Below are positions 1,948 through 61,908 of a stretch of 62,128 bases of DNA, piece after piece. Source of the DNA: an uncultured Candidatus Saccharibacteria bacterium (lineage in GTDB: Bacteria > Patescibacteriota > UBA1384 > XYA2-FULL-43-10 > 1-14-0-10-43-13); contig CAZGWE010000005.1 of NCBI GenBank assembly GCA_964529405.1, forward strand, positions 1 to 62,128, read 5' to 3'. The notes under the pieces are model-generated. The model searched no databases and was not told the DNA's origin. It worked only from the letters and a program-made list of their open reading frames with translations. The position numbers and the translations under genes are program-made. Positions within the stretch are counted from its first letter, which is position 1. Every line of letters begins with the position of its first letter.

Positions 1948-3517
1948 ACCCCGGCTCCCTTAAGGCCGCCAGACTGCGGGATACATAAGAGATAATCGGG
2001 AAAAGGGCCAAACAAAAGTCTTCCAGGCCCAAACTACCCTTTTCCGTCAAAAACCATCCGGGCATAATGAAATTCTGCCTCGCGAACCGCTTGGCCCAGG
2101 CCGCTTCGCAATTTAAGACGATAGCATAAGGCAAATATCGAATAAAAAGACTGTTCTCATTAAATTCGAAGGGCATCGGCTTAGGATCGGAAAGAAATTT
2201 CCTGAAAGCGTACCAATTCGCCAAGGCTTCCTGGCCGAGAATGCTCCTGATTGGAATACGGGAGGAACAAATAATGATAATGAGAGCTGCCAGCATCATT
2301 CCGACCCAGAAGAAAACAATGTACGGAGGATTGGTGAAAGTTATCAAGCTTAAAATAAAACCGCCCAATCCGGCTGCCAGGGCTAAAATGCCAATTAAAC
2401 GATAGCGGGCATGAATTTTTTGCGGATTCGATTTAAAATAACCCAGGCGGGTCGAAAGAGCGTAGATACCGGCCGAAACGAGCGAAATTTTTTTACTATA
2501 AAAGTGGTTATTAATCCTTCTCTCGATCTCAACTCGATCAGAGCTCAAGTTCTTTTGGAAAATTTTGGAGAGCAAAACTTTTTCATAACCAAGCAGGCGC
2601 TGATCGAATTTACCCTTGCCAAAAGCAAAGCTTCGTTCGCGGTCAATAATAGCAATATCTCCCCGCACGGCCAAATCAATCAGGGTGGCAGCAATCTCCC
2701 TTGAACGCACCCGTTGGTTGACCAGCGCTCCCACCACCGACGGAGGCAAAGCCATAGGGGGCGAGTCAATGCTCTTGTCCGGTATTTCGATACGCTGGCG
2801 CCGTGTTTGATAAAGCACCAGCAGGGACATAAAGATGATAGTAATTACAGGCAAGCTAATTGCCACGGTTACCCAGACATTCAGTTGCAAGCCGGAAAGT
2901 ATTTTCTTAATTTTCTCGTTAACCGGCGCATTAACTGTTCCCTTTGGCATCTTGGCCACAATCGAAACAACAGCACTGCCGGAGACATCTTCGGCTAAAT
3001 AGGTGATAGTCGAATCATCCGAGACAGACGAATTGGTTTCGCCGACGCCATGGATAGCCAGGATTTGGTGTTCCGTTTGCTTGGCTACCGGTTGTGGCAG
3101 AGCCAAAGTAATTTCGATCGAAGTGTACTCAACCCCGGCAGCATCAAGAACCGGCAGTCTGGCTTCATCGCCATCCTGAAGCAAATTGATTTTTTTGTTG
3201 GAGGGATTGCCATCAATTTCAATTTTACCGTCATTAAGAATCTCGACATCAATTTTAAGACTTGTCCGGTCTTCACCAGTAGCGATCGGTTCGGTATCGG
3301 CTTGGTACTTGTTGAAATAAACCGTCCTGACTCCGCCCGCAGCCAGCAAGGCCAATAACGCAAAAAATAGTAGTTTCTTTTTGTAGAAACCAATCAAGCC
3401 GGTTTTTTTTTCTGCCTTTACTTTCTCGCCCTTGGTCAACCACCCTCCTATTTGTGAAGCTTGAAACTTAAAATGTGAAACTTGGTTGAAAACCATCCAT
3501 GCAAACTTCGAGGACAA
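1940..3517 (-). CDS. DUF2207-like membrane protein
   Basis: N-terminal TM, ~170 aa ectodomain, TM, then PPSVVGALVNQRVRSREIAATLIDLAVRGDIAIIDRE, then C-terminal TM cluster. This is the DUF2207 architecture. Confidence 0.6.
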   Translation of the reverse strand: MSSKFAWMVFNQVSHFKFQASQIGGWLTKGEKVKAEKKTGLIGFYKKKLLFFALLALLAAGGVRTVYFNKYQADTEPIATGEDRTSLKIDVEILNDGKIEIDGNPSNKKINLLQDGDEARLPVLDAAGVEYTSIEITLALPQPVAKQTEHQILAIHGVGETNSSVSDDSTITYLAEDVSGSAVVSIVAKMPKGTVNAPVNEKIKKILSGLQLNVWVTVAISLPVITIIFMSLLVLYQTRRQRIEIPDKSIDSPPMALPPSVVGALVNQRVRSREIAATLIDLAVRGDIAIIDRERSFAFGKGKFDQRLLGYEKVLLSKIFQKNLSSDRVEIERRINNHFYSKKISLVSAGIYALSTRLGYFKSNPQKIHARYRLIGILALAAGLGGFILSLITFTNPPYIVFFWVGMMLAALIIIICSSRIPIRSILGQEALANWYAFRKFLSDPKPMPFEFNENSLFIRYLPYAIVLNCEAAWAKRFARQNFIMPGWFLTEKGSLGLEDFCLALFPIISYVSRSLAALREPGFE

Positions 3518-3589
3518 ATCGTCTGCGCTTTGCGGTTTACGTTTTATGCTTTACGTTTTATTTTAGCACTTTTTATTTGCAACACCAAC

Positions 3590-4546
3590 CTACATTCTAC
3601 AAATATCAACTACCAGTAAATCAAGCACCAGGCCCGGCACTGAACCGCTCTTGAGTTCATAGTCCGCTTGTTCTAATTTTAAATAGATACTCTCCAGCTT
3701 ATCGAGCGGATAAATCCTTAATAATGTTGCAAGTTTGCGAAAGACATAGGGGTTTATTCTGGTTAATTTAAGAATCTCCTGATCGCCCGCCCCGCTTGCC
3801 CTCAAATCAGCCGCGCTCAAGGCATGACGGAATTGATAAACAATCATGGTCAGAATGTAAATCTCGTTCTCTCCGGCCTCAATTAAGCGATGGAGAGCTT
3901 GGATGGATTCTTTTTCGTTCTTTTTGGCTAGCCAATCAATCAGGTCGAAAATCTTGACTTCGGAATTTGGCGCGACCATCAACTCAACGGATTTTTCGTC
4001 AATCCCGTCCACTCCGCGGGCACCGGCGTAAGCAATCAGCTTATTGGTTTCCTGATCCAGCCGCCAGAGGTCGGCGTCCACAAAGAGAATTAATTTTTCA
4101 ACCGCTTGCTGCGAAATGGTCAATTTAGCTTTATCGACTCTCGCGCGGATCCATCTTTGCAAAAAGGATCGGGGGAGCGGGGAAAATGTTTGGGCGATTT
4201 TCGGCTTATCGAGCGTTTTAAAAAGAACGGTGCGGGCATCCGGTAAACCCTCTTCGATAAAAAGAACAACGCTGGACTGCGGTATCTTGTCCAAATTATA
4301 GGCAATATATTTTTTGAGATCTAAATCCTTATTTTCCATAAGCAGATTAGTAATTTCAACCAGCTTTGTCTCCATCAGAAACGGCAGCGACAAAACCGCC
4401 TCGAGATAGTTCGCTTTGGTTAATTTAGCCCCGTCCAGACGGATATGATTAAAAAGAGCGTTTGAATCATTGTTGAATTTAGCTCGAAACGCCCTCACCT
4501 TTTCTTTTATAGAGTATGTGTCTTCACCGTAGAGAAAGAAATACAT
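3590..4546 (-). CDS. holA: DNA polymerase III delta subunit
   Basis: MYFFLYGEDTYSIKEK start and a length/helical C-terminus typical of HolA. The track ORF extends to a TTG at 4588; ATG 4546 is preferred. Confidence 0.7.
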   Translation of the reverse strand: MYFFLYGEDTYSIKEKVRAFRAKFNNDSNALFNHIRLDGAKLTKANYLEAVLSLPFLMETKLVEITNLLMENKDLDLKKYIAYNLDKIPQSSVVLFIEEGLPDARTVLFKTLDKPKIAQTFSPLPRSFLQRWIRARVDKAKLTISQQAVEKLILFVDADLWRLDQETNKLIAYAGARGVDGIDEKSVELMVAPNSEVKIFDLIDWLAKKNEKESIQALHRLIEAGENEIYILTMIVYQFRHALSAADLRASGAGDQEILKLTRINPYVFRKLATLLRIYPLDKLESIYLKLEQADYELKSGSVPGLVLDLLVVDICRM

Positions 4547-24163: not shown

Positions 24164-24259
24164 TTGGTGCGCTAACTAGGTGTGATGTCTCTATATCCCC
24201 CAACCCAAACAACCAATATTGGCATCAAATCATCCATCATAACCGATTAAAAAACCATT

Positions 24260-24299
24260 TTTCGTCGTACAGAACGCGGCCGCGTTCTGTACGACGAAA
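24260..24299. repeat. 40-nt perfect palindrome with GCGGCCGC centre (copy 1)
   Basis: tttcgtcgtacagaacgcggccgcgttctgtacgacgaaa. Identical to 25059-25098. Confidence 0.95.
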
Positions 24300-24317
24300 T
24301 TCAACACAGCTGGTCGT

Positions 24318-24971
24318 TCATGTCCTAATTGATTCGCACCTGTTCCGATGTAATTTACGCCCATGGATCGCCCTGGGCTCTCTTTTAATTGTATCATTTT
24401 TCGATCGATCAAATTTTTTCTCAATAATACCATCGATATCAGACTTTTCGGCCACAATATAGACCACATATCCCTCAATTCCGAATGTATACGCTGCCAT
24501 CTCAACAAATTTACCAATATTTCGATTCGTAACCCAAAGACTGCCCTGTATTTTTTGGCAACCAAGATCCTTTAGCGCCTGTCTAAACTGATCTCTTTTT
24601 ACCTTGTCCTTCTCTGGTATATCAAAGGAGATATACCGATTCGTGCCATCTGCCTCAATCTTATCCGACAGTGTTTCAAGAGTTCTAAGTTTCGCTTTAT
24701 CCGTAAACCGAATCGAGGTTTGCTTTCCCACCCCTTCAAACTCAAGATAACCGCTCCGTTTCAAATTATAAAGTTGCTTGGCGGCTTTAATATCAGACCA
24801 GCCCGTCCCAAGCGAAAAATGGTCATTAAGGGAACGATAGACGTCCTTCCTGGTCAGAACAATTTCATCCGCAGCTTCAGCAAAAGCGGCAAGAAAATTC
24901 AACACCGCAAGCCCAGTATTACGCGCTCCTTTCTTTATATCCCTAAGTAACACCTGACGCCTATATCTCAC
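24318..24971 (-). CDS. PaaX-like / Cas2-fold-containing putative regulator
   Basis: C-terminal RYISFDIPEKDKVKRDQFRQALKDLGCQKIQGSLWVT resembles the PaaX C-domain (ferredoxin/Cas2-like) pattern. GTG 24971 follows GAAGGAGGGG. Confidence 0.4.
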   Translation of the reverse strand: MRYRRQVLLRDIKKGARNTGLAVLNFLAAFAEAADEIVLTRKDVYRSLNDHFSLGTGWSDIKAAKQLYNLKRSGYLEFEGVGKQTSIRFTDKAKLRTLETLSDKIEADGTNRYISFDIPEKDKVKRDQFRQALKDLGCQKIQGSLWVTNRNIGKFVEMAAYTFGIEGYVVYIVAEKSDIDGIIEKKFDRSKNDTIKREPRAIHGRKLHRNRCESIRT

Positions 24972-25058
24972 TGCCCCTCCTTCATTATTAACAATCACAT
25001 CTTTCTAGTAATGATTCCAGCCATTATCTACAACTCTCACCCCCCATTTTACCCCATA

Positions 25059-25098
25059 TTTCGTCGTACAGAACGCGGCCGCGTTCTGTACGACGAAA
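25059..25098. repeat. 40-nt perfect palindrome with GCGGCCGC centre (copy 2)
   Basis: Identical to 24260-24299. The local palindrome extends to 25057-25100. Confidence 0.95.
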
Positions 25099-25139
25099 TA
25101 GCTATCATACAATACGGAATGTAAAAATAGTAATATTAT

Positions 25140-25988: not shown

Positions 25989-26762
25989 CTATTCCACCTC
26001 CAGCCCCCTAGACTGTACCCAAACCGACTCAAAAAACACTTGCATCGTTTGATAAAAACTAGTACTCGTAATAATCATTGCGTAAGGCTTCTCTTTTGTT
26101 TGAGAAAAAATAGCCACTTTATCATCATAGATGTGAATATGGCTCTCGGGTACGAACCACTCCGGAGCAATCCTAATCTGCCTGTTATCATCAGTCTCAG
26201 GCTTATATCGCCTGTAACCTGTTTTTTTATACTCTTCATTATCAGTCGCCAATCTTAAAGACCTATATACAATCTGGTGTTTTTTCGTTTCATCTAAATA
26301 GTTCGCAATAAATTCGTCACCCACGTGGCTGTGTCCAGATGCTCGAACGGGTATGGCATCAACTTTTTTACCAGTTGATTCCAGGGAGAGACGAAAAACT
26401 TCTTTGATACCCTCAACGCCCTCGAACATCTCCACCGCCGGCTTACCCTCCTCCTGTTTGTAAAGCGAGAAGAGGGCAGGAACGGCGTGTTCGATCGTAG
26501 CCAGCCTTGCCCGCATTATCTCTTGGAGTCGCGCCGGCGAAGCGGCAATGTAGTATTGATGCCTGTTTCGCTCAGTAATACTAATTAAACCAAGTCGGCG
26601 AAAATCATCCAGATAATTGTAAACAGTAGTCCTCTTAATACCGGCCCGCTGTGCAATCGGAATAATACTAGATTCCCCCAACTCCAACATAGCCAGATAT
26701 ACTTTGGCTTCTTTTTCGGTTAATCCGGCTTCTTTTAAAGATGTAAGTAAAGTGTTGTCCAT
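25989..26762 (-). CDS. TrmB-family transcriptional regulator (paralogue 1)
   Basis: LKEAGLTEKEAKVYLAMLELGESSIIPIAQRAGIKRTTVYNYLDDFRRLGLI wHTH. C-terminal domain ends ...FFESVW. Confidence 0.8.
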   Translation of the reverse strand: MDNTLLTSLKEAGLTEKEAKVYLAMLELGESSIIPIAQRAGIKRTTVYNYLDDFRRLGLISITERNRHQYYIAASPARLQEIMRARLATIEHAVPALFSLYKQEEGKPAVEMFEGVEGIKEVFRLSLESTGKKVDAIPVRASGHSHVGDEFIANYLDETKKHQIVYRSLRLATDNEEYKKTGYRRYKPETDDNRQIRIAPEWFVPESHIHIYDDKVAIFSQTKEKPYAMIITSTSFYQTMQVFFESVWVQSRGLEVE

Positions 26763-26848
26763 GTGTTTGTTTTGTCTATATTTCTAGACACATTCTAGCA
26801 CTTACTGATCATTTAGTCAAGACTTTAGCCATTTTTATGTCTAAACTA

Positions 26849-26877
26849 TTGACATATTACCGCTTACATGCTATAAT
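26849..26877 (+). promoter_or_regulatory. Conserved consensus promoter, copy A
   Basis: TTGACA-17 nt-TATAAT with extended -10 (TGCTATAAT), followed by GGCAAGTCACGATGAG. Confidence 0.75.
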
Positions 26878-26900
26878 GGCAAGTCACGATGAGAATTTGA

Positions 26901-26948
26901 TTGTCATCCTCGGGCAGCACGCCAGCAGGCGGCATGACCCGGGGATCC
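26901..26948. repeat. Hairpin element inserted in the cargo-A leader
   Basis: ttgtcatcctcgggcagcacgccagcaggcggcatgacccggggatcc. It sits between the TCAC and GTGA halves of the leader stem. Confidence 0.7.
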
Positions 26949-27119
26949 AGTTACTCTCAAAGTGAAGCAAGTGGCAACGGTCCTTCTCCTGGATCAGCCG
27001 GCAGCAAGCTGGCCCTGGGGGGAGAAGCTAGATGAGGTAGAGAGATTCACGCCATCAAAAACGCCAACCGAGGGCATAAGGCACAGGTTGGAATCACGAT
27101 CAGAAAGAGAAACAGAAAA

Positions 27120-27404
27120 ATGGACAAGATCAAGCTAGTTGCTGCAATGAAAAAAATCGGAGGCTACAAAGCCATCCTAATCGACAAAGACGGGGCCAAA
27201 ACCCAGGTGATGATGGGTAGATGGAGCAATCGTCTTAGTGTCGATGGGCACATTATCAAAGATCTGCCCGAGTTTGACACCGTCCGGCTTTTTGACGGGT
27301 GGTATGACTGCCACACAGCAGAATGGACAGCGGAGGAAGTAGAACAACATTGGGATGGGCTACCGAAATACCTGCGTGAAAACGCAAAGGTGAATGGCTG
27401 GTAG
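27120..27404 (+). CDS. Hypothetical small W-rich protein (cargo A1)
   Basis: 94 aa, G+C-rich, downstream of promoter A and its leader. Confidence 0.5.
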   Translation: MDKIKLVAAMKKIGGYKAILIDKDGAKTQVMMGRWSNRLSVDGHIIKDLPEFDTVRLFDGWYDCHTAEWTAEEVEQHWDGLPKYLRENAKVNGW

Positions 27405-27801: not shown

Positions 27802-27816
27802 GGAGATATGAACCGA

Positions 27817-27848
27817 AAGAGCCAATCCATAAGGAAAGGCTCTTTTTT
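27817..27848 (+). terminator. Rho-independent terminator of cargo A
   Basis: AAGAGCCaatccataaggaaaGGCTCTTtttt. Near-identical hairpin at 32263-32296. Confidence 0.75.
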
Positions 27849-27865
27849 AATTCCGATTCCATTCT

Positions 27866-28584: not shown

Positions 28585-29349
28585 CTATCTTATCTCCTTC
28601 GGCTTCTTGGCAATCTCCCAAAGCAAATTAAACCTCTGCCGTTCGTCATATGCCAAGGCCGAACTTTCGATTACTGTGGCAAATGGATTACTTTCCGAGT
28701 GGGCGATATTGGCAATCGAATCGCCAAAGATAAAAGTGATTGTCCTGGGATCAAATTCCGGTCCTGGCACCAATCTTGTCTCCCGCAATTCGGGATCATC
28801 ATTTGATGCCAGTTCGCGATTAGGTTTATTATTTTCAAAAATAGCCCGGGCAAAAATTTTCTTCTTAGCCCGTTCGGCGATGAAAATTTTAAAATATTCC
28901 GAATAAGCAGTCTCGATCATATTTGTGCCAATAATCAATAATTCGCTGCCCTCCGGCTGATTCAGAACTAAGTTAAAGACCTGTTCTACGCCATGAGCAC
29001 CTTCATAAAGGCGTATTTTAGGTTTCTGGGCAGATTTACTACTTAAGGCGTCAAACTGAGCCAAACTTTGGCTAAACTGTTTTTTGCGCTGGTCAAAAGC
29101 CGCCAACAATTCTCGGGGATTTACAACCGAGTAGATCGTCCGCTTATTATCATTGGTTTTACTGGCATATCCCATTGACAATAAATCGTCGAGCACAACG
29201 TAACAGGTTGGCCGCTTTACGCCGCATTTTTGAGCAATGTCCCAAATAGAACTCGGCCCCAACTCCAAACAAGCCAAATAAACCTTGGCCTCATTTTCGC
29301 CCAAGCCGATCATGTTTAACGTTTGAATTAAATCTGTGTTTTGAGTCAT
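28585..29349 (-). CDS. TrmB-family transcriptional regulator (paralogue 2)
   Basis: LNMIGLGENEAKVYLACLELGPSSIWDIAQKCGVKRPTCYVVLDDLLSMGY. Confidence 0.8.
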   Translation of the reverse strand: MTQNTDLIQTLNMIGLGENEAKVYLACLELGPSSIWDIAQKCGVKRPTCYVVLDDLLSMGYASKTNDNKRTIYSVVNPRELLAAFDQRKKQFSQSLAQFDALSSKSAQKPKIRLYEGAHGVEQVFNLVLNQPEGSELLIIGTNMIETAYSEYFKIFIAERAKKKIFARAIFENNKPNRELASNDDPELRETRLVPGPEFDPRTITFIFGDSIANIAHSESNPFATVIESSALAYDERQRFNLLWEIAKKPKEIR

Positions 29350-29786
29350 CTGGTCCTCCCCTTGAAGCAGGGGAAGTTAGTGGGGGTATGGCCCCTCCCC
29401 CTAGTGTAAGGGGAGCTGGAGGGGGTATTCTCCCCCAACTCATTCGCGATTTTTTCCACTACCCCCTCTAAATTTTCGGTCACTTCTTTGTTTGTAAATC
29501 TAAGAACTATTATGTCCAGTCCACTCAACACTGTATCCCTTTCCCGGTCTTTTATTCTGCCACTCTCGGAATAATGCGAATCCCCATCGATCTCTATAGC
29601 CAAACGCTTGTTTGGGCAATAAAAATCAACAATAAAACTGTCAATGCTATACTGGCGACGAAACTTATATCCATTTAATTGACAATTCCTGATCTTCTGC
29701 CAAAGCTTTCTCTCCGGTTCCGTCATGTTGCCGCGTAGTATCTTGCGTTTTTCCTTTAGAATTTCCTTGTTGTAAGTTTGATCCAT
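29346..29786 (-). CDS. DUF559 (Vsr/MutH-like endonuclease fold) protein
   Basis: RGNMTEPERKLWQKIRNCQLNGYKFRRQYSIDSFIVDFYCPNKRLAIEIDGDSHY. The C-terminal 30 aa are translated from a hairpin repeat. Confidence 0.75.
   Translation of the reverse strand: MDQTYNKEILKEKRKILRGNMTEPERKLWQKIRNCQLNGYKFRRQYSIDSFIVDFYCPNKRLAIEIDGDSHYSESGRIKDRERDTVLSGLDIIVLRFTNKEVTENLEGVVEKIANELGENTPSSSPYTRGRGHTPTNFPCFKGRTR
29352..29386. repeat. Hairpin repeat flanking the DUF559 gene (left)
   Basis: ggtcctccccttgaagcaggggaagttagtggggg. Its reverse complement matches 29881-29914 with 2 mismatches in the core. Confidence 0.75.
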
Positions 29787-29880
29787 TTTGTCCTCGATGA
29801 GCCTACCCTCTACTGGTTCTCCTCCTAAGGTAGGAGGAGTCAGAGAAGGTATTTTATTTATTTCTACAATGCTCTCCTAC

Positions 29881-29914
29881 CTCCTCTAACTCCCCCTGCT
29901 TCAGGGGGAGGACC
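29881..29914. repeat. Hairpin repeat flanking the DUF559 gene (right)
   Basis: ctcctctaactccccctgcttcagggggaggacc. Confidence 0.75.
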
Positions 29915-30068: not shown

Positions 30069-30161
30069 GGCCTGTTCACGATGAGGAAGCGGTCACCCGC
30101 CAATCACCGTGAAAGCAAATAGCAATCACGCCATCAACAACGCTGGACGAAAGGCAAGAAG

Positions 30162-30617
30162 ATGAACTTCAATAACAAAACGATGGGGATTTTGGTTGTT
30201 GATTTGTCCTGCTGGTGCGACGAGATCGGATTCATACAATGCCGGATTGATGAAATAGCCAATCGTGTAAGAGAATTCAGAGCCGTCTACGGCCACAATA
30301 TCGATGACGAAGGGAACGATGAGTGGACACTCGTTTCAGTTAAGTGGTTCCCTCGCTGGTGTGATAACCTTCGCCCACTAGTTTTCTACATCAACAAGAC
30401 CAAGACTGGTGACCCAAGAGATTATTACAGGATCCACAAAGAAAACGGCGAGATTATCTGGGAAACAAGCCCTGGTGACCTGGCCGGTCCACGTTCTGAA
30501 TTTTATTTTGTTGAGTGGGCCGTCAAAGTCCACGAGTCCCGAATTGAGGAAGAGATCTTAGAAGTCTCGCTCGAGGAACTGAAAGACTGGGTGATACTCA
30601 GTCTGGGTGGTGTTTAA
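30162..30617 (+). CDS. Hypothetical W/C-rich protein (cargo B1)
   Basis: 151 aa, G+C-rich, downstream of promoter B. Confidence 0.5.
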   Translation: MNFNNKTMGILVVDLSCWCDEIGFIQCRIDEIANRVREFRAVYGHNIDDEGNDEWTLVSVKWFPRWCDNLRPLVFYINKTKTGDPRDYYRIHKENGEIIWETSPGDLAGPRSEFYFVEWAVKVHESRIEEEILEVSLEELKDWVILSLGGV

Positions 30618-31108: not shown

Positions 31109-31121
31109 TCTATTCATCTTG

Positions 31122-31197
31122 TTGACAAGATTGTTGACAAGATTTTATTTCTACTTGACAAGATTGTTGACAAGATATATAATTTACATGACAAGAT
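31122..31197 (+). promoter_or_regulatory. Iterated TTGACAAGAT operator-like array overlapping a consensus promoter
   Basis: Five copies, at 31122, 31134, 31155, 31167 and 31188 (ATGACAAGAT). TTGACA 31155 -17 nt- TATAAT 31178. Confidence 0.7.
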
Positions 31198-31211
31198 TAA
31201 CGAAAGAGTAT

Positions 31212-32243
31212 ATGAATTTAGAAGAGAAAATAATCGAAATTGCCAGCAAGAAAAAGAAATTTAAAACCTCCGACATAGTCAAAGGACTGGGGGGTTCATT
31301 TTCGCGACAGTATATTAGCACAATAATTAATAATATGGCCAAAAAAGGGTTGCTGCTTCGTACCGGCAAAACAACTGGCACGTTCTATGCCCTGCCCGAG
31401 TACTCCGACTTTCTTCTCAACGGACACATAATGAAGAAATTTAAAAACGATGGGCTTAAGGAGCATGAAGTACTGCAAGAGATAGAGAGCCGGGCCACTT
31501 ATATCACAAAGCTAAAAGACAATGTTAGAAGTATTTTTACGTATGCTTTTTCTGAAATGCTTAATAATGCAATTGAGCACTCTAAGTCACCAGAAGCTCA
31601 AATTGAAGTTAGCCAAAACAAAGAAAGTTTTTCATTCATTGTTAAAGATACCGGCATTGGAGTATTTAAAAACATTATGCAAAAACGACACTTGAGTTCC
31701 GAGCTGGAAGCAATTCAGGACTTGCTTAAAGGCAAAACAACAACCGCTCCACATGCCCACTCCGGCGAAGGAATTTTTTTCACATCCAAAGCGGCTGATA
31801 TTTTCGTGTTGGAAAGTTTTGGCCACAGGCTAAGAATCGACAATATTATTAACGACATATTCGTTGAAGAACTTAAACCAAAAATGAAAGGTACCAAGGT
31901 TTTATTTTATATTAATCTCAATTCAAAAAGACACTTGAGCGATATATTCAAAGCTTATCAAACCGACCCAGAAGAGTACGCTTTTGATAAGACTGAGGTT
32001 AAAATAAGACTCTATACCATGGGCACCGTCTATATCTCCCGTTCGCAAGCCAGACGTGTGCTCTCTGGACTCGAAAAATTCAAGCATATAGTTATGGATT
32101 TCGACAAAGTCCCAACAGTCGGCCAAGCCTTCGCCGATGAGGTTTTCCGCGTCTTCAAAATCAAACACCCGGAAATCGTGATAGAACCAGTAAATATGAA
32201 TGAAACAACAGCTTTCATGGTTGGCAGAGTTGAGAAAGTTTAA
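31212..32243 (+). CDS. wHTH + GHKL ATPase (RsbW-like) + DUF4325 (STAS-like) fusion protein
   Basis: N-box SEMLNNAIEHS, G1 KDTGIGV, G2 SGEGIFF. C-terminal SRSQARRVLSGLEKFKHIVMDFDKVPTVGQAFADEVF resembles DUF4325. ATG 31212 follows gaaagag; the track start at 31119 translates the operator array. Confidence 0.7.
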   Translation: MNLEEKIIEIASKKKKFKTSDIVKGLGGSFSRQYISTIINNMAKKGLLLRTGKTTGTFYALPEYSDFLLNGHIMKKFKNDGLKEHEVLQEIESRATYITKLKDNVRSIFTYAFSEMLNNAIEHSKSPEAQIEVSQNKESFSFIVKDTGIGVFKNIMQKRHLSSELEAIQDLLKGKTTTAPHAHSGEGIFFTSKAADIFVLESFGHRLRIDNIINDIFVEELKPKMKGTKVLFYINLNSKRHLSDIFKAYQTDPEEYAFDKTEVKIRLYTMGTVYISRSQARRVLSGLEKFKHIVMDFDKVPTVGQAFADEVFRVFKIKHPEIVIEPVNMNETTAFMVGRVEKV

Positions 32244-52113: not shown

Positions 52114-52241
52114 CTTTTCTCTCCCTATCGGAATCGAGCTATCCAGCCTGCACCCTTGCGAGCCTCGGCTGGCGTTTTTGATGGCGTTTCCGTGCTCTTT
52201 CACGCTGATTGCGCTAAGCGCTTATTCATCGTGAACAGGCC

Positions 52242-52271
52242 ATTATAGCACTTCTTTTTCCGCTTTGTCAA
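52242..52271 (-). promoter_or_regulatory. Conserved consensus promoter, copy D
   Basis: Minus strand: TTGACA-18 nt-TATAAT (TGCTATAAT), followed by GGCCTGTTCACGATGAA. Confidence 0.7.
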
Positions 52272-52483
52272 TACCTTTCCACAGTTTATTGCTCTATTAG
52301 TCTTGCTGTTATCATAGCTATTGACAGGTTAATATATAAAGGTATATAATACAACTGTCGAAATATTTCCACACAGTATTAAGTCGGAGAGTATGAAAGT
52401 ACTAAGTGTGAAAGTCAGATCGAATTCTGTGCCTCACTCTCCGACTCTCTAACTCTCACCCTCTCACACTAATTAGGAGTCAT

Positions 52484-53257
52484 ATGAACACCGACCTATT
52501 AAAACAATTTGGTCTGTCGGCAAAAGAAGCTAGCATTTATTTGTCTTTGTTAGAGCTTGGAGCATCATCGGTCTCACAAATCGCCGTCAAAGCAAAAATT
52601 AACCGCACCACTGCATACGATATTTTGGAGGCACTGGTTCAATACGGCTTGGTAAGCTATGTCAAAGAGGAGACCAAAAAGCATTATGTGGCTGAAAACC
52701 CTGAGGCATTGGTCGGCTATTTAGAGAAAAAGGGCAGAGCATTGATTTCAAAGGCTTCTGAGGCCAAGAAAATATTACCGGAACTTAAAAGTGTCTATAA
52801 CTTAATCCCACATAAACCAAAGGTTAAATATTATGACGGCGAAGACGGTATTATCGCCATGTATGAAGATTCCCTTACTTCAAGATCAGAGATTTTGTCA
52901 TGGTTAGATCCAGAACGTACAGCCGACTTTTCAGAAGATTATTTTAGTCAATATTATAAACGCCGTGCTGAAAAAGGCATTCACATTAAAGCTATAGTTA
53001 ACGATGTGCCAATCTCGCACGAAATCAACTCACGCAACAAAGCAGAGGATAGAGAGATGAAAATAATCCCCCGCCAGATGATGGATATTGTGCCTGAGTG
53101 CTACGTATATGATGACAAAGTTGCCTTTATGTCCCTTCGTGAAAAGTTTGGCGTTATGATCGAATCCAAAGACATCGCCAAAGCCCTCCGCAAGCTTTAT
53201 GAACTCGCTTGGAAGCATGCGGGGGAAATTGATAAAGCAAGTCAGCGGAACAGCTAG
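52484..53257 (+). CDS. TrmB-family transcriptional regulator (paralogue 4)
   Basis: LKQFGLSAKEASIYLSLLELGASSVSQIAVKAKINRTTAYDILEALVQYGLV. Confidence 0.85.
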   Translation: MNTDLLKQFGLSAKEASIYLSLLELGASSVSQIAVKAKINRTTAYDILEALVQYGLVSYVKEETKKHYVAENPEALVGYLEKKGRALISKASEAKKILPELKSVYNLIPHKPKVKYYDGEDGIIAMYEDSLTSRSEILSWLDPERTADFSEDYFSQYYKRRAEKGIHIKAIVNDVPISHEINSRNKAEDREMKIIPRQMMDIVPECYVYDDKVAFMSLREKFGVMIESKDIAKALRKLYELAWKHAGEIDKASQRNS

Positions 53258-53432: not shown

Positions 53433-54527
53433 TCATGGCACCCTCGCCTCCTTCTTGAGCCGGCTGCGAACAGCCTTCATAAGGTTAGCTTGGGTGCCGG
53501 CAGTGGCTCGCGTGATGCAGCGTATGCACGAGCCATCTGCCTCCCGGCAATGGCGCCAACTCGCCTGGATGATCAGGCGGTGAAAATGGCGCAAATCCTC
53601 GACGGTCATGGCCTTAATGTTGGGCATCAACCCGGTGGGGCCGGATTTATAGCCGCAGAGCATCATTAGGCCATCTGTGTCCATTGCCACCCCGCGATAG
53701 CCGTAGCTGCACTTGCCTGTTCGCAAGGAGCTTTGACCGCCAGTGTCAGAGTAGGTTTTGACCAAGGTATCCAGCCGAGCTTGATCGATAGCATTGCCGA
53801 CCCGCTCGAGCCAGACTCGTTCCCTGGCCACTTTCCCCTCAGGCATGACACAGTTTGAAATGAAGAGCAGGCCGTTGCTGTGAGCGAAAGCCTTGGCAAC
53901 CTCGACACCACTCTCGTTGAGCAGGGTGACAGTGAAGTTCACCCCGATCCGAGTGATCTCTCGGTTGCCAATGACCTCGTTTGGCCCATAAACAGCCCGA
54001 AGCAGTCTCAGGTTCTCGATGACCCTGAAGATATCACCATTGCCGGTTGAGCGGCGGTAAATCTCAGGGTCAAGTGAATGCAGGCTGATGAAAATCGAAA
54101 CCCCGTGGTCTCGCAAGAATTCAGCCTGTTCCTGGCTCAGAAAGTTCAGGGTAGTGAACATAATAGTTCCCATTCCCAAACTATGAGCCTGTTCGAGAAC
54201 CGGGCGTACCAACTCACAAAACCCAGGTCGGCCATCGGGCGGTTGCCACAAAGGCTCACCGTCACCGATAATCACGATGGTTTGAGCGCCTGCCTCATGC
54301 GCCTTGACAATCTGCTCGTTGCGCTCCTCGGGCGACAAAACCGGCTTACCGAGGCAAGCCCAGTTGATGCCGCCGCCAGAGCCCAGCGCGCAGATGGCGC
54401 AGCAATGCGGACAACTCGTCGGAATGTTAACTGTAAAGAAAGTTAAGCCTTCTTCATCTGGTGCAATCTCGCCTTTCAAACTGGCGACCAGCTCCAGATA
54501 GTCAAGCGACCCCCTCAGTGTCTTCAT
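53433..54527 (-). CDS. Radical SAM protein with C-terminal Cys cluster (SPASM/twitch-like) (cargo F)
   Basis: CPHCCAIC (C-x3-C-x2-C), IIGDGEPL, C-terminal HCREADGSCIRC. G+C-rich. Confidence 0.7.
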   Translation of the reverse strand: MKTLRGSLDYLELVASLKGEIAPDEEGLTFFTVNIPTSCPHCCAICALGSGGGINWACLGKPVLSPEERNEQIVKAHEAGAQTIVIIGDGEPLWQPPDGRPGFCELVRPVLEQAHSLGMGTIMFTTLNFLSQEQAEFLRDHGVSIFISLHSLDPEIYRRSTGNGDIFRVIENLRLLRAVYGPNEVIGNREITRIGVNFTVTLLNESGVEVAKAFAHSNGLLFISNCVMPEGKVARERVWLERVGNAIDQARLDTLVKTYSDTGGQSSLRTGKCSYGYRGVAMDTDGLMMLCGYKSGPTGLMPNIKAMTVEDLRHFHRLIIQASWRHCREADGSCIRCITRATAGTQANLMKAVRSRLKKEARVP

Positions 54528-54613
54528 ATTCTGTTCTCCCCTTGAATGTACCAGCCACCATTCTGGCGTGATGGCTCAACGCCGTTCAACCCGACTCCGG
54601 ATTGTAACTTGCT

Positions 54614-54642
54614 ATTCTAGCATTAAATTGCTGAAATGTCAA
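54614..54642 (-). promoter_or_regulatory. Conserved promoter, copy F (diverged)
   Basis: Minus strand: TTGACA-17 nt-TAGAAT (TGCTAGAAT), followed by AGCAAGTTACAAT. Confidence 0.6.
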
Positions 54643-54717: not shown

Positions 54718-55488
54718 ATGAATGACCAATACAAAAGTGAGGAACTGGAAAAAGAACTGCTTGACTATGGCCTCACCAGCAAACAAGCGCGAGTCTATTT
54801 AGCTTTGTTGCAGTTAGGCACTTCTAATATCCAAGCTATTGCCGAGAAGGCGCGCGTTGAGAGAACAAATACTTATGATGCCGTTCAAGGATTGATTGAT
54901 CGCCGGCTGATCAGCATCACTACGCAAGGCAAAAAACGGCTATTTGTGGCTGAGCCGCCCGAATCGTTAGAGGTCATCATCAAAGAAAAGGCAAAGAAAC
55001 TTAAAGACCTTTTGCCTGAACTCAGATCGCTCCATAATATTTCCGAATTCAAGCCCAAAATCCGCTTTTATCCAGGAGTTGAGGGTTACAAAGCAGTTTA
55101 TGAGGATACCCTCTCCGCTTCAAGCAAGTTGCTCTTTGGCATATACTCCAGCCAAGATATTATCGATGTTTTGGGCATGGACTTTATTCGCCACATAATT
55201 GAGCAGCGGGTAGAAAAGAAAATCACTCTCCGCGTTATTCGACCCAGAGAGACAGAGGTACCCGGTCTTTGGCCGGCCGGCGAAGAAGCACTAAGGGAAG
55301 TAAAACTAGCCCCCAAGGGAATGGTTTTCCCGATTGTAACCTTTGTTTACGACAACAAAGTCATCTATCTCTCATCAAAAAAAGAGACCTTTGGTCTCAT
55401 TATTGAAAGCCATGACATGGCCCAGGCTCATCAGAACTATTTTGAGGCTCTGTGGCAGATTAGTACGGAGATGCCGATAGTAAAATAA
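54718..55488 (+). CDS. TrmB-family transcriptional regulator (paralogue 5)
   Basis: LLDYGLTSKQARVYLALLQLGTSNIQAIAEKARVERTNTYDAVQGLIDRRLI. Ends YFEALWQIS. Confidence 0.85.
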   Translation: MNDQYKSEELEKELLDYGLTSKQARVYLALLQLGTSNIQAIAEKARVERTNTYDAVQGLIDRRLISITTQGKKRLFVAEPPESLEVIIKEKAKKLKDLLPELRSLHNISEFKPKIRFYPGVEGYKAVYEDTLSASSKLLFGIYSSQDIIDVLGMDFIRHIIEQRVEKKITLRVIRPRETEVPGLWPAGEEALREVKLAPKGMVFPIVTFVYDNKVIYLSSKKETFGLIIESHDMAQAHQNYFEALWQISTEMPIVK

Positions 55489-60539: not shown

Positions 60540-61322
60540 TTACAACCGATCCCAGATGAATTCGAAGTACTTCTGCCAGGTTTGGGCTATGACGGTGCTT
60601 TCTGTGATTGAAAAGAAGAGAGTGCGGGAGTCGTAGAGAATGATGTGATTTTTAGTTATAACGACTGAGCCTGGGTTAGCGTATTTGTCATCGATGAATT
60701 TGATCTCAGATCGAGGCAGGTTATAACGTGTCACGATGTATGGGTCGCCCGCATTGCCATCTCCGGGTAATTTTTGTGATTTGGGCAAAATTGTGCGCAA
60801 ATGGAGACCTAACTGCTCCTTGGGCGGAGAAAAGTACATAAACGCATCACCCGCTGAAGTTATCTTTCTAAACGAAGCCCCAAATATACAAATGTTATTG
60901 TCGGGTGTCTGCAGGGTCTTAAACAGCTCGTAAGTACGATCATAAAATTTGTTAACTTCTTCCTCGCCCTGAAAATACTCAACAATCGATTTGCTAGTCT
61001 CGCGTGAAAAGTGTTCCTGAAGTTTGGGAAGGATTTTGTTCAAGTCTCTCTCTTTTTGCTTGACCATAAGCTTCAAGTTCTCAGGATCTGAGGGTAAATA
61101 AATGGTCCTCTTGCCGCGTGAGGCGGTTTTTAGCAAGCCATCGCGTAAAAGTTTATCGATGTGATAATAAATGCCGGTACGCTCGATCTCGCCATTCTCA
61201 GCGATCTCGCTCACCGTACCGCCGCCAAGATCTATGGCAGATAAATAAATAAGCGCCTCTTTTTGGCTCAAACCCAGATTTATAAGAGCATCAAGCTCAA
61301 TTTTTGTGTTAAACTTTTTCAC
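60540..61322 (-). CDS. TrmB-family transcriptional regulator (paralogue 6)
   Basis: LINLGLSQKEALIYLSAIDLGGGTVSEIAENGEIERTGIYYHIDKLLRDGLL. Ends YFEFIWDRL. Confidence 0.85.
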   Translation of the reverse strand: MKKFNTKIELDALINLGLSQKEALIYLSAIDLGGGTVSEIAENGEIERTGIYYHIDKLLRDGLLKTASRGKRTIYLPSDPENLKLMVKQKERDLNKILPKLQEHFSRETSKSIVEYFQGEEEVNKFYDRTYELFKTLQTPDNNICIFGASFRKITSAGDAFMYFSPPKEQLGLHLRTILPKSQKLPGDGNAGDPYIVTRYNLPRSEIKFIDDKYANPGSVVITKNHIILYDSRTLFFSITESTVIAQTWQKYFEFIWDRL

Positions 61323-61382
61323 ACTTACATATTACATCAAGCCTAGACATCTGTCAAATATGTTTTAATTCGTTAAACTGAT

Positions 61383-61411
61383 TGACATATTAAGCATTTA
61401 GTGCTATAATG
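61383..61411 (+). promoter_or_regulatory. Conserved consensus promoter, copy C
   Basis: TTGACA-17 nt-TATAAT (TGCTATAAT), followed by GGCGTGTTCACGATTGG. Confidence 0.75.
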
Positions 61412-61485
61412 GCGTGTTCACGATTGGAAAGAGCTTCGAGTTCAACTAAGCGTGAAGATCGACCAACACAAGGAGGCATTACACA

Positions 61486-61908
61486 ATGCTATTCGATCAG
61501 AAAACCGTAGCAGGCTATCATTTGCTCGGCCCTACGGCCCAGCACATCCTGCAAGTTGCATTTGAGAACGCCAGACCCACCAATGACGGTCTGATCGTGG
61601 ACGGCCTTGATGGGATCTTGCGCGCAACCGGGAAGGTGGCCGCAACCACCATCAACCGTCTCGAGAAACGGGGGTACTTGGTACCCATCGGCGAGATTCC
61701 GACAGCCAAGGGCGGTCGAGCGAGGAAACGCCACAAGCTGGTTCTTGATCCACCGATCACCGAATACCAGCCCCTGAATGGCCCAGGTACGGGCCAGCTC
61801 GTCCTCACCTTCCGTCACAAGGACGAAGTCAGAACCTTTGTCATCGACCATAGCCTCCGTCTCTCTATTAAGACTGAGGAGTTCAGTATCGAGATCGCCG
61901 AGGAGTGA
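61486..61908 (+). CDS. Hypothetical protein, possible wHTH (cargo C)
   Basis: 140 aa, G+C-rich, SD aaggagg. TTINRLEKRGYLVPIGE resembles a winged-helix recognition region (weak). Confidence 0.5.
   Translation: MLFDQKTVAGYHLLGPTAQHILQVAFENARPTNDGLIVDGLDGILRATGKVAATTINRLEKRGYLVPIGEIPTAKGGRARKRHKLVLDPPITEYQPLNGPGTGQLVLTFRHKDEVRTFVIDHSLRLSIKTEEFSIEIAEE

Follow-up and report, generated by a model that had tools for sequence, protein, structure and literature searches.

Five loci in a stretch of 62,128 nucleotides (nt) from an uncultured Candidatus Saccharibacteria bacterium (contig CAZGWE010000005.1; the whole stretch is called the window below) each place a promoter back to back with a gene for a different TrmB-family winged-helix regulator (PF01978), and the transcript predicted from each promoter begins with a hairpin, which is very probably an RNA structure under selection. 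The helix of this hairpin covaries across paralogous and orthologous leaders, includes G-U pairs and tolerates loop lengths between 6 and about 70 nt; the shared structured RNA leader that a first-pass annotation of positions 26878-27119 had proposed is thus borne out by the comparison. Those positions hold a single atypical, expanded copy, the leader of locus A, which is atypical because a 49-nt repeat has been inserted into its hairpin.

Promoters, start element and 5' hairpins

The loci, designated A to E, begin at 26849 (A), 30040 (B) and 61382 (C) on the plus strand and at 52271 (D) and 54642 (E) on the minus strand; related loci and contigs from other genomes carry L-numbers (L004 to L068). 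Promoters and 5' hairpins are located as follows (Y, pyrimidine; R, purine; W, A or T; N, any base).

26849-26877 (+): promoter of locus A, TTGACA, 17-nt spacer, TG-extended TATAAT, 12/12 match
26883-27119 (+): leader of locus A, 237 nt, beginning with the predicted +1 G and reaching up to the cargo ATG (27120)
26884-26965 (+): 5'-terminal hairpin of A, predicted fold around the inserted repeat
26901-26949 (+): inserted repeat copy of A, TTGTCATCC...GGGGATCCA, placed in the 5' hairpin's apical loop
30040-30068 (+): promoter of locus B, 12/12 match, TG-extended
30074-30113 (+): predicted +1 G and three-tier hairpin of B, UUCACG/CGUGAA, UGA/UCA, GCGG/CCGC
61382-61410 (+): promoter of locus C
61416-61456 (+): predicted +1 G and three-tier hairpin of C, UUCACG/CGUGAA, UUGG/CUAA, GAGCU/AGUUC
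52242-52271 (-): promoter of locus D
52199-52236 (-): predicted +1 G and three-tier hairpin of D, UUCACG/CGUGAA, UGA/UCA, GCGC/GCGC
54584-54642 (-): promoter of locus E, TTGACA-N17-TGCTAGAAT (54642-54614), then the 5' hairpin

Promoters A, B, C and D have in common a perfect TTGACA-N17-TGCTATAAT, behind which the order is the same in all four: a GGC discriminator, two variable bases, the G of a YGT start element and (T)TCACGAT. For the 23-nt pattern from the -10 element to TCACGAT (TGCTATAATGGNNNGTYCACGAT) the window scan gave three matches against 0.00 expected; locus A deviates from it by a deletion of 1 nt. The transcription start (+1) was placed, from spacing and the pyrimidine-purine (YR) rule, at the G six nt after TATAAT, within YGT, and a G at this sixth position agrees with the YRY start element described around +1 (PMC12641261). 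Within the window TCACGAT is confined to the promoters of the first genes 3' of the leaders (cargo genes) and was found neither at the TrmB genes' own promoters (26820-26792, 52321-52350) nor at other promoters with a 12/12 match. Spacers between -35 and -10, loop sequences and flanks differ between the loci. Given the differing spacers, regulators with an identity of no more than 20-28% and unrelated cargo genes, conservation appears to be position-specific and not the trace of a recent block copy; to judge from these sequences, a similarity limited to -35, extended -10, discriminator, start and first transcribed bases is the product of selection.

The first-pass annotation had paired TTCACG at the expected +1 with a downstream CGTGAA in B, C and D. 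The pair is present in all three loci (B, 30075-30080/30108-30113; D, 52230-52235/52199-52204), the coordinates given for C having been one base too high (correctly 61417-61422/61451-61456), and TTCACG-N20-32-CGTGAA occurs in the window exactly these three times versus 0.07 expected. The shorter pair reported for A, TCAC (26884-26887) with GTGA (26962-26965), likewise agrees with the sequence. When B, C and D are folded from the predicted +1, each has its 5' end shut in a three-tier hairpin, the predicted helix starting at +2 in these loci and at +1 in E, as counted from this predicted start. A compensatory change of G-C to U-A sets the middle tier of C apart from that of B and D, and precisely this change removes the ATG from C, the leader of which contains neither an ATG nor the second box described below (cargo ATG at 61486). 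The cargo ATG lies at 30162 in B, which has a leader of 88 nt, and at 54527 in E, and the likely cargo start of D is a GTG (52113) after GGGAGAG. After the 3' arm the sequences read AGCAAAUAG, GAUCGACC and AGAGCACGG. Locus E (54642-54527, minus strand), absent from the first-pass annotation, is a fifth, diverged module, in which AGCAAGTTACAAT follows the promoter (54642-54614, minus strand); its predicted hairpin of 10 base pairs (bp), GUUACAAUCCGG/UCGGGUUGAAC, occupies the same place as in the other loci with a different sequence (GUUACAAUCCGGAGUCGGGUUGAAC, 54608-54584, minus strand).

Sense-strand terminator-like sites (GC-rich hairpin and U run) were not found in the A or B leaders by a simple scan, which speaks against an intrinsic attenuator or terminator in the leader.

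Covariation of the helix

For twelve leaders the 5' and 3' arms were aligned by hand from the predicted helices, with N as gap placeholder. In this alignment 81.5% of the cells were paired, versus 24-49% when the 3' partner was slid by 1-3 columns, and eight of the 11 pairs vary on both sides; the pair before ACG, for instance, is C-G in eight leaders, A-U in two and U-A in two. The covariation score amounted to 0.452 against 0.192 +/- 0.031 in shuffled alignments and was reached by none of 500 shuffles. Judged by these compensatory changes, selection acts to maintain the helix. At one pair seven leaders have U-A and five have U-G, and further G-U pairs occur, which favour the sense strand because they would be C-A mismatches on the other.

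Pairing at the 5' end was also assessed in 20 leaders by keeping the first 12 nt of each fixed and shuffling what follows. For 11 leaders, pairing of +2 to +9 was matched by at most 4% of the shuffles, and Fisher combination of the 20 values gave a chi-square of about 108 with 40 degrees of freedom (a hand calculation over loci that are not fully independent). A covariance model, R1, built from six hairpins with B and D among them, scored 44.8 bits for B and, for D, 44.6 bits on the sense and 21.2 bits on the antisense strand, B and D being training sequences. Beyond its own members R1 found weak matches only (27093-27133 in the window, L009, L044 and L059), and no hidden copies of the hairpin in the window.

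The arms are spaced by 6, 9, 13, about 20 or about 70 nt, and they pair in a register that shifts from one lineage to another. Variable spacing, shifting register and G-U pairs together argue for a helix in the sense-strand RNA and against an operator in double-stranded DNA. A TrmB operator within the leader was ruled out, since spacing is not fixed, one pair is U-G in five of 12 leaders, the same TCACGAT stands beside such divergent paralogs, and paralog-specific motifs lie upstream of the -35 instead. No Rfam family was matched, either at gathering thresholds in the whole window or at E-value thresholds in A-B and ten related loci; these scans returned tRNAs and chance-level matches only. 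Likewise, no description of the motif was found in the literature on promoters, leaders and TrmB of the candidate phyla radiation (CPR).

Leaders in related genomes

An unbiased set of relatives was obtained by way of proteins and not of a DNA pattern, namely through the orthologues that regulators A, C and D have in other genomes. Five of the 13 orthologous leaders have ACGAT 9-11 nt after the -10 hexamer, for which about 0.3% per leader was estimated by chance, and in four of these five it pairs with a complement located further downstream. The distance varies, the loops in protein-reached relatives measuring 6 to about 20 nt:

L066: CACGAU-N6-AUCGUG
L067: AACGAUAA-N9-UUAUCGUU
L068: CAACGAU-N13-AUCGUUG
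L062: UUACGAUC...GGUCGUAA
L059: GTCACGATGAG present, the contig stopping before any 3' arm

Adjoining a B-type orthologue, L064b reads GUCACACUGAGAAAGCGAAAGCCAAUCGGUAUGAAG, which is homologous base by base to the hairpin of B and shows a G-C to A-U change. L060 and L061 carry unrelated hairpins near the 5' end. The contigs of L059 and L063 end inside or before the leader, which sets the scope of the A-type and of the closest D-type comparison.

Genome, metagenome and viral collections were scanned with the DNA pattern TGCTATAATGGN{4,5}TCACGAT, which yielded mostly chance matches in unrelated bacteria. Its matches in CPR (L004, L009, L010, L034, L017, L018, L031, L035, L044) carry limited weight, because they were selected by the search pattern itself, and their number is no proof of a CPR-wide motif, because consensus promoters are very numerous in the collections. 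L009, L010 and L034 were used, since they show features for which the pattern did not select: a TrmB-divergent layout and a 5' hairpin that engages ACGAU and has an inner hairpin and an A-rich internal loop. In B, C, D, L064b, L010 and L034 tier 2 and the inner hairpin are separated by an A-rich internal loop.

On the CPR metagenome contigs L017/L033, L018, L031 and L035, all pattern-selected matches, a consensus promoter precedes AUCACGAU, after which come a hairpin about 40 nt long and a U run; small RNAs of about 55 nt are predicted from them, for which there was no Rfam match. In L031 and L035 these predicted small RNAs are convergent with the 3' end of an open reading frame (ORF) beginning (Y)AFIDSQNLNL, which may be NYN-like.

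Locus A, an expanded copy with an inserted repeat

The leader of locus A folds with a minimum free energy of -84.4 kcal/mol (z = -3.3). Its 5' hairpin consists of UCAC/GUGA (26884-87/26962-65), UGAGA/UCUCA (26890-94/26955-59) and UGAUUG/CAGUUA (26898-903/26948-53). The 48-nt hairpin element formerly noted in this loop is indeed an insert, with a length of 49 nt, and it is a copy of a dispersed hairpin repeat, TGTCATYC...GGRATC(Y)A, of which the window contains at least 15 copies with conserved ends and variable stem-loops, resembling repetitive extragenic palindromes or miniature inverted-repeat transposable elements (REP/MITE-like). Repeat sites are, for example, 11479, 24116, 26903, 33386(-), 34639, 34725(-), 39791, 42239, 45152(-), 53288 and 62016, and one copy adjoins the TrmB gene of L063 in a related organism. 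In the A locus of the closest relative (L059; regulator 79% identical) the sequence is GTCACGATGAGAGAGCGGCCAAAGGCCAAGC, and no insert is present at this site as far as the contig reaches. With its many copies, conserved ends and absence from the readable part of the L059 site, the insert in A is, by sequence, a dispersed repeat. The suspicion that the box might be part of a repeat element accordingly holds for this 49-nt insert only and not for the leader.

Box 2, CA-rich linker and second hairpin

A second box, ACGCCATCAAMAACGC, and a hairpin following it had been noted in some of the leaders. They lie as follows.

27049-27065 (+): box 2 of A, ACGCCATCAAAAACGCC, within a CA-rich linker
27064-27091 (+): hairpin 2 of A, CCAACC...GGTTGG
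30128-30143 (+): box 2 of B, ACGCCATCAACAACGC
52143-52187 (-): box 2 of D (52187-52171) running into hairpin 2, CCAGCC...GGCTGG (52172-52143)

The box is exact at 27049, 30128 and 52187(-), while every other copy in the window has at least three mismatches. The compensatory relation of hairpin 2 between A (CCAACC/GGTTGG, 27064-69/27086-91) and D (CCAGCC/GGCTGG, 52167-72/52143-48) is correct as well, with one A-U to G-C change, which represents one event only. The view of an element common to all modules could not be upheld, as box 2 was not found in C and E and is thus present in three of five loci, hairpin 2 in two of five. The exact box is specific to the A, B and D leaders of this genome. 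In D-type orthologues a CA-rich, G-poor linker occupies the box-2 position (L066 ACAAAAAC, L067 ACAACACAAAUAAA, L068 CACACAUACAAUCAAA, L064 CUACAAAAC). Behind it stands a hairpin that differs in sequence between these leaders and leaves 0-5 nt to the Shine-Dalgarno sequence. What is conserved, as read from these leaders, is the order of 5' hairpin, CA-rich linker, hairpin 2 and ribosome-binding site, and not the exact box.

Additional (U)UCACG(AU) copies are located in leader A (27094-27100 and 27045-27050) and leader B (30124-30128), and there is none in D. By complementarity they might take the place of the 5' arm in pairing with the CGUGA 3' arm, as a possible alternative structure.

Regulators, cargo genes and candidate operators

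The five TrmB-family genes adjoining the promoters are the following.

25989-26762 (-): paralog A, PF01978 with E = 9e-14, divergent from promoter A
28585-29349 (-): paralog B, with a DUF559 gene between it and promoter B
60540-61322 (-): paralog C
52484-53257 (+): paralog D
54718-55488 (+): paralog E

The organism belongs to the Patescibacteria (CPR). Among themselves its five paralogs share only 20-28% identity, and named homologues of the window regulators come from the Patescibacteria group, Berkelbacteria, Moranbacteria, Wolfebacteria and Falkowbacteria. Protein comparison found the cargo genes mutually unrelated, which ruled out their common origin, and none of the four that were scanned had a Pfam match.

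Motifs peculiar to single paralogs lie upstream of the leaders. At type-A loci a palindrome, TGTCTA-N6-TAGACA (26773-26790), directly precedes the regulator ATG and a TGTCTA half-site (26838-26843) is placed five nt upstream of the -35 of the cargo promoter; since both are kept in all type-A orthologous loci (L051, L053, L056, L059, L060), they are likely to form the operator of the type-A regulator. At type-D loci TGTGGAWA (52283-52276) is situated upstream of the cargo -35 and TGTGTGGAAATATTTCGACA (52356-52375, read on the minus strand) close to the regulator's own start, both of which are kept in L064 and L066-L068 and constitute a separate candidate operator for the type-D paralog. At type-C loci CTGTCAAATATGTTT (61351-61365) is kept in L061 and L062. 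With paralog-specific motifs upstream, gene-specific control would be placed there, and the shared leader would therefore be left generic.

Between paralog B and its divergent promoter an endonuclease gene of the DUF559/REase_MTES_1575 kind (29346-29786, minus strand) is inserted, bracketed by 37-nt inverted repeats (29352-29388 and 29878-29914) that are 89% complementary. In L010 an ORF of 123 amino acids (aa; 3354-3725) occupies the equivalent position. Together, these two observations suggest that the intergenic spot between regulator B and promoter B receives mobile elements.

The cargo of module E (53433-54527, minus strand) has a cysteine motif, CPHCCAIC, and is radical-SAM-like by appearance. 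Elsewhere, orthologues of regulator D adjoin radical-SAM/SPASM genes (L064, 4579-5721; L068, 3277-4377), and the D cargo of the window is an unrelated 216-aa protein. Because regulator-D orthologues have these different neighbours, cargo genes are, on the evidence of gene order, swapped between conserved units of regulator, promoter and leader.

Proposed function of the hairpin

The first-pass annotation left three roles side by side, an mRNA 5' stabiliser, a cis-regulatory RNA and a protein-binding site, which sequence alone cannot separate; in our assessment the stabiliser is the most likely of them. That protection of the 5' end is the main role of the hairpin has, in itself, a little short of an even chance. 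The leader would be the 5' untranslated region (UTR) of cargo mRNAs from consensus sigma-70 promoters adjoining TrmB-family genes. RNA would start at the predicted G within YGT, and one or two nt further on (U)UCACGAU would pair with its downstream complement, closing the 5' end with a hairpin and hiding it from enzymes whose attack on mRNA depends on the 5' end (RppH together with RNase E, or the RNase J type), by which unrelated cargo genes would gain a common, stable and well-expressed message. In some leaders a single-stranded, CA-rich linker, to which box 2 of A, B and D belongs, and the second hairpin just upstream of the ribosome-binding site probably aid translation or stability. Gene-specific control would be contributed by the neighbouring TrmB paralog via candidate operators upstream of and against the -35, outside the leader.

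Stabilisation of bacterial mRNAs by 5'-terminal stem-loops is established for ompA, papA and aprE, according to the primary papers numbered 93-95 and 109 in PMC3997798. As in Escherichia coli ompA and papA and Bacillus subtilis aprE, the hairpin described here lies within a nucleotide or two of the (here predicted) 5' end and is succeeded by a single-stranded stretch and the ribosome-binding site; those stabilisers act on any downstream gene, to which the unrelated cargo may be compared. They were defined experimentally and structure suffices for them, whereas the present hairpin is known from sequence and its ACGAU is conserved across loci and lineages. There may also be a resemblance to stabilisers of the Shine-Dalgarno (SD)-like or polypurine type, reportedly represented by STAB-SD of Bacillus thuringiensis cryIIIA and by the polypurine stabiliser of Hue et al. 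1995 (number 179 in the list of PMC3997798), in that a purine-rich, SD-like run comes right after ACGAU (GAGGAAG, AGGAAAGGG, GGGAAUAGG); here, however, the run is partly inside the helix or the internal loop. With the cis-regulatory leaders and riboswitches of Rfam the element shares a conserved, covarying 5' UTR structure, but it matches no family and its apical region is too variable for an aptamer. TrmB operators such as the Thermococcales glycolytic motif (TGM, TATCAC-N5-GTGATA) likewise have TCAC/GTGA half-sites near TrmB-family genes; they differ from the leaders in the spacing of 6 to about 70 nt, the G-U pairs, the five regulators of low mutual identity and the type-specific upstream motifs found here.

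Several observations weigh against a selected hairpin that acts by protecting the 5' end. The hand-made arm alignment is biased towards structure, z-scores of single-leader folds are modest (-1.2 to -2.3), and the orthologous leaders L051, L053 and L056 have no 5'-end hairpin. The position of +1, and with it the closeness of the helix to the 5' end, follows from spacing and the YR rule alone. Moreover, the 5' arm is conserved in sequence (ACGAU), though a pure stabiliser requires structure alone, and the A-rich internal loop in two lineages hints at sequence-specific recognition or a promoter-level constraint.

Alternative explanations

As conserved ACGAU and the A-rich loop go beyond simple protection, there is room for sequence-specific recognition or for a constraint on promoter escape. 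In the former case the hairpin would be a cis-regulatory RNA, read through ACGAU and the A-rich loop by a shared trans factor (protein, small RNA or ligand), which would co-regulate modules otherwise under their own TrmB paralogs; alternative pairing may act, in A and B of the 3' arm with the second (U)UCACG at the start of box 2. We regard this as unlikely. Sequence of the 5' arm kept beyond the needs of pairing, recurrence of the A-rich loop in B, C, D, L064b, L010 and L034, the second UCACG just upstream of box 2 (A, 27045-27050; B, 30124-30128) and the short transcripts beginning with AUCACGAU predicted in other CPR contigs would fit, but D has no second UCACG, the predicted transcripts were chosen by the search pattern itself, Rfam offers no family, and a loop of 6 to about 70 nt with shifting register is unlike a ligand-binding aptamer. 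Little credence is given to the wider proposal that GUCACGAU and the hairpin form a lineage-wide Patescibacteria 5' 'tag', read by a dedicated RNA-binding protein, RNase or small RNA. If it were true, separately regulated, TrmB-guarded cargo and some small RNAs would stand under one global post-transcriptional control, and alternative pairing with the second UCACG in box 2 might belong to the mechanism. At consensus promoters escape is often the limiting step, and the TCAC/GTGA half-sites presumably resemble the TrmBL1 motif of Thermococcales; both would suit an element acting in DNA, either a start element with its initial transcribed sequence or the operator of a shared factor, to which the hairpin would be secondary, and the conserved block does run unbroken from the -10 via the GGC discriminator and YGT to TCACGAT. 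We nevertheless think it rather improbable, as the 3' arm covaries with the 5' arm, which is unexpected of a pure promoter element, spacing and register vary in a manner intolerable for a dimeric DNA-binding protein, G-U pairs are mismatches in DNA or on the other strand, and type-specific motifs, TGTCTA-N6-TAGACA in A and TGTGGAWA in D, are found upstream instead.

Copying within the genome, by gene conversion or by spread of a promoter-leader cassette or repeat, could also produce similar leaders, and A and D do share a 25-nt block with 96% identity, the exact TTCACG...CGTGAA is known from this genome only (L059 has GTCACGATGAG, its contig ending before the 3' arm) and small dispersed repeats are many in the genome. 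It has a poor chance of being the explanation, because spacers, loops and flanks are unlike between loci, the differences between copies are compensatory, and orthologous leaders again show ACGAT with its complement in organisms whose regulators have just 60-70% identity. Box 2 with hairpin 2 was also considered as an intrinsic terminator that would act on the opposite strand and shield the promoter from antisense read-through: a simple scan found a terminator-like site at 27077-27061 (minus strand), then TTTTTGATGG, and the antisense strand of D has the same arrangement. The idea is very improbable, given a broken T run (TTGTTG) and no hairpin 2 in B, a stem of just 6 bp with a loop of 16-18 nt, good terminators that already end the convergent genes at 27816-27853, and relatives that keep the CA-rich linker and the hairpin but no A run. 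Finally, the 'invariant ATG' in CACGATGAG, considered as a possible start of a near-leaderless mini-ORF in B, D and A (13, 9 and 3 codons), is not invariant: C reads CACGATTGG (ATT), L062 has ATC, and in L010, L034, L066 and L067 the codon is ATA. Neither in length nor in sequence do the peptides agree, and the codon is inside the helix; with neither start codon nor reading frame conserved, the mini-ORF was rejected and retains next to no credibility.

A leader with a hairpin that may protect the 5' end would be new as a motif to Rfam and to the literature on CPR leaders, though elements of this kind are well known; if 5'-end protection is all it does, an ordinary mechanism would have been met in a new lineage. 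Almost nothing is known of gene control at the RNA level in CPR bacteria, which are mostly uncultured and have very small genomes. The candidate leader, supported by covariation, is tied to a recurring module of TrmB-family regulator, divergent consensus promoter, hairpin leader and variable cargo. It offers a testable handle on accessory-gene expression and, with its promoter, a compact unit with which genes might be expressed in CPR bacteria or their hosts.

Other features of the window

A 46-nt element occurs in two copies (24255-24300 and 25054-25099) that are 98% identical and flank an ORF at 24318-24998; each copy holds a perfect palindrome of 41-44 nt (TTTCGTCGTACAGAACGCGGCCGCGTTCTGTACGACGAAA). 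Tandem TTGACAAGATTG repeats (31116-31183) overlap a promoter with a 12/12 match upstream of a 374-aa ORF (31119-32243).

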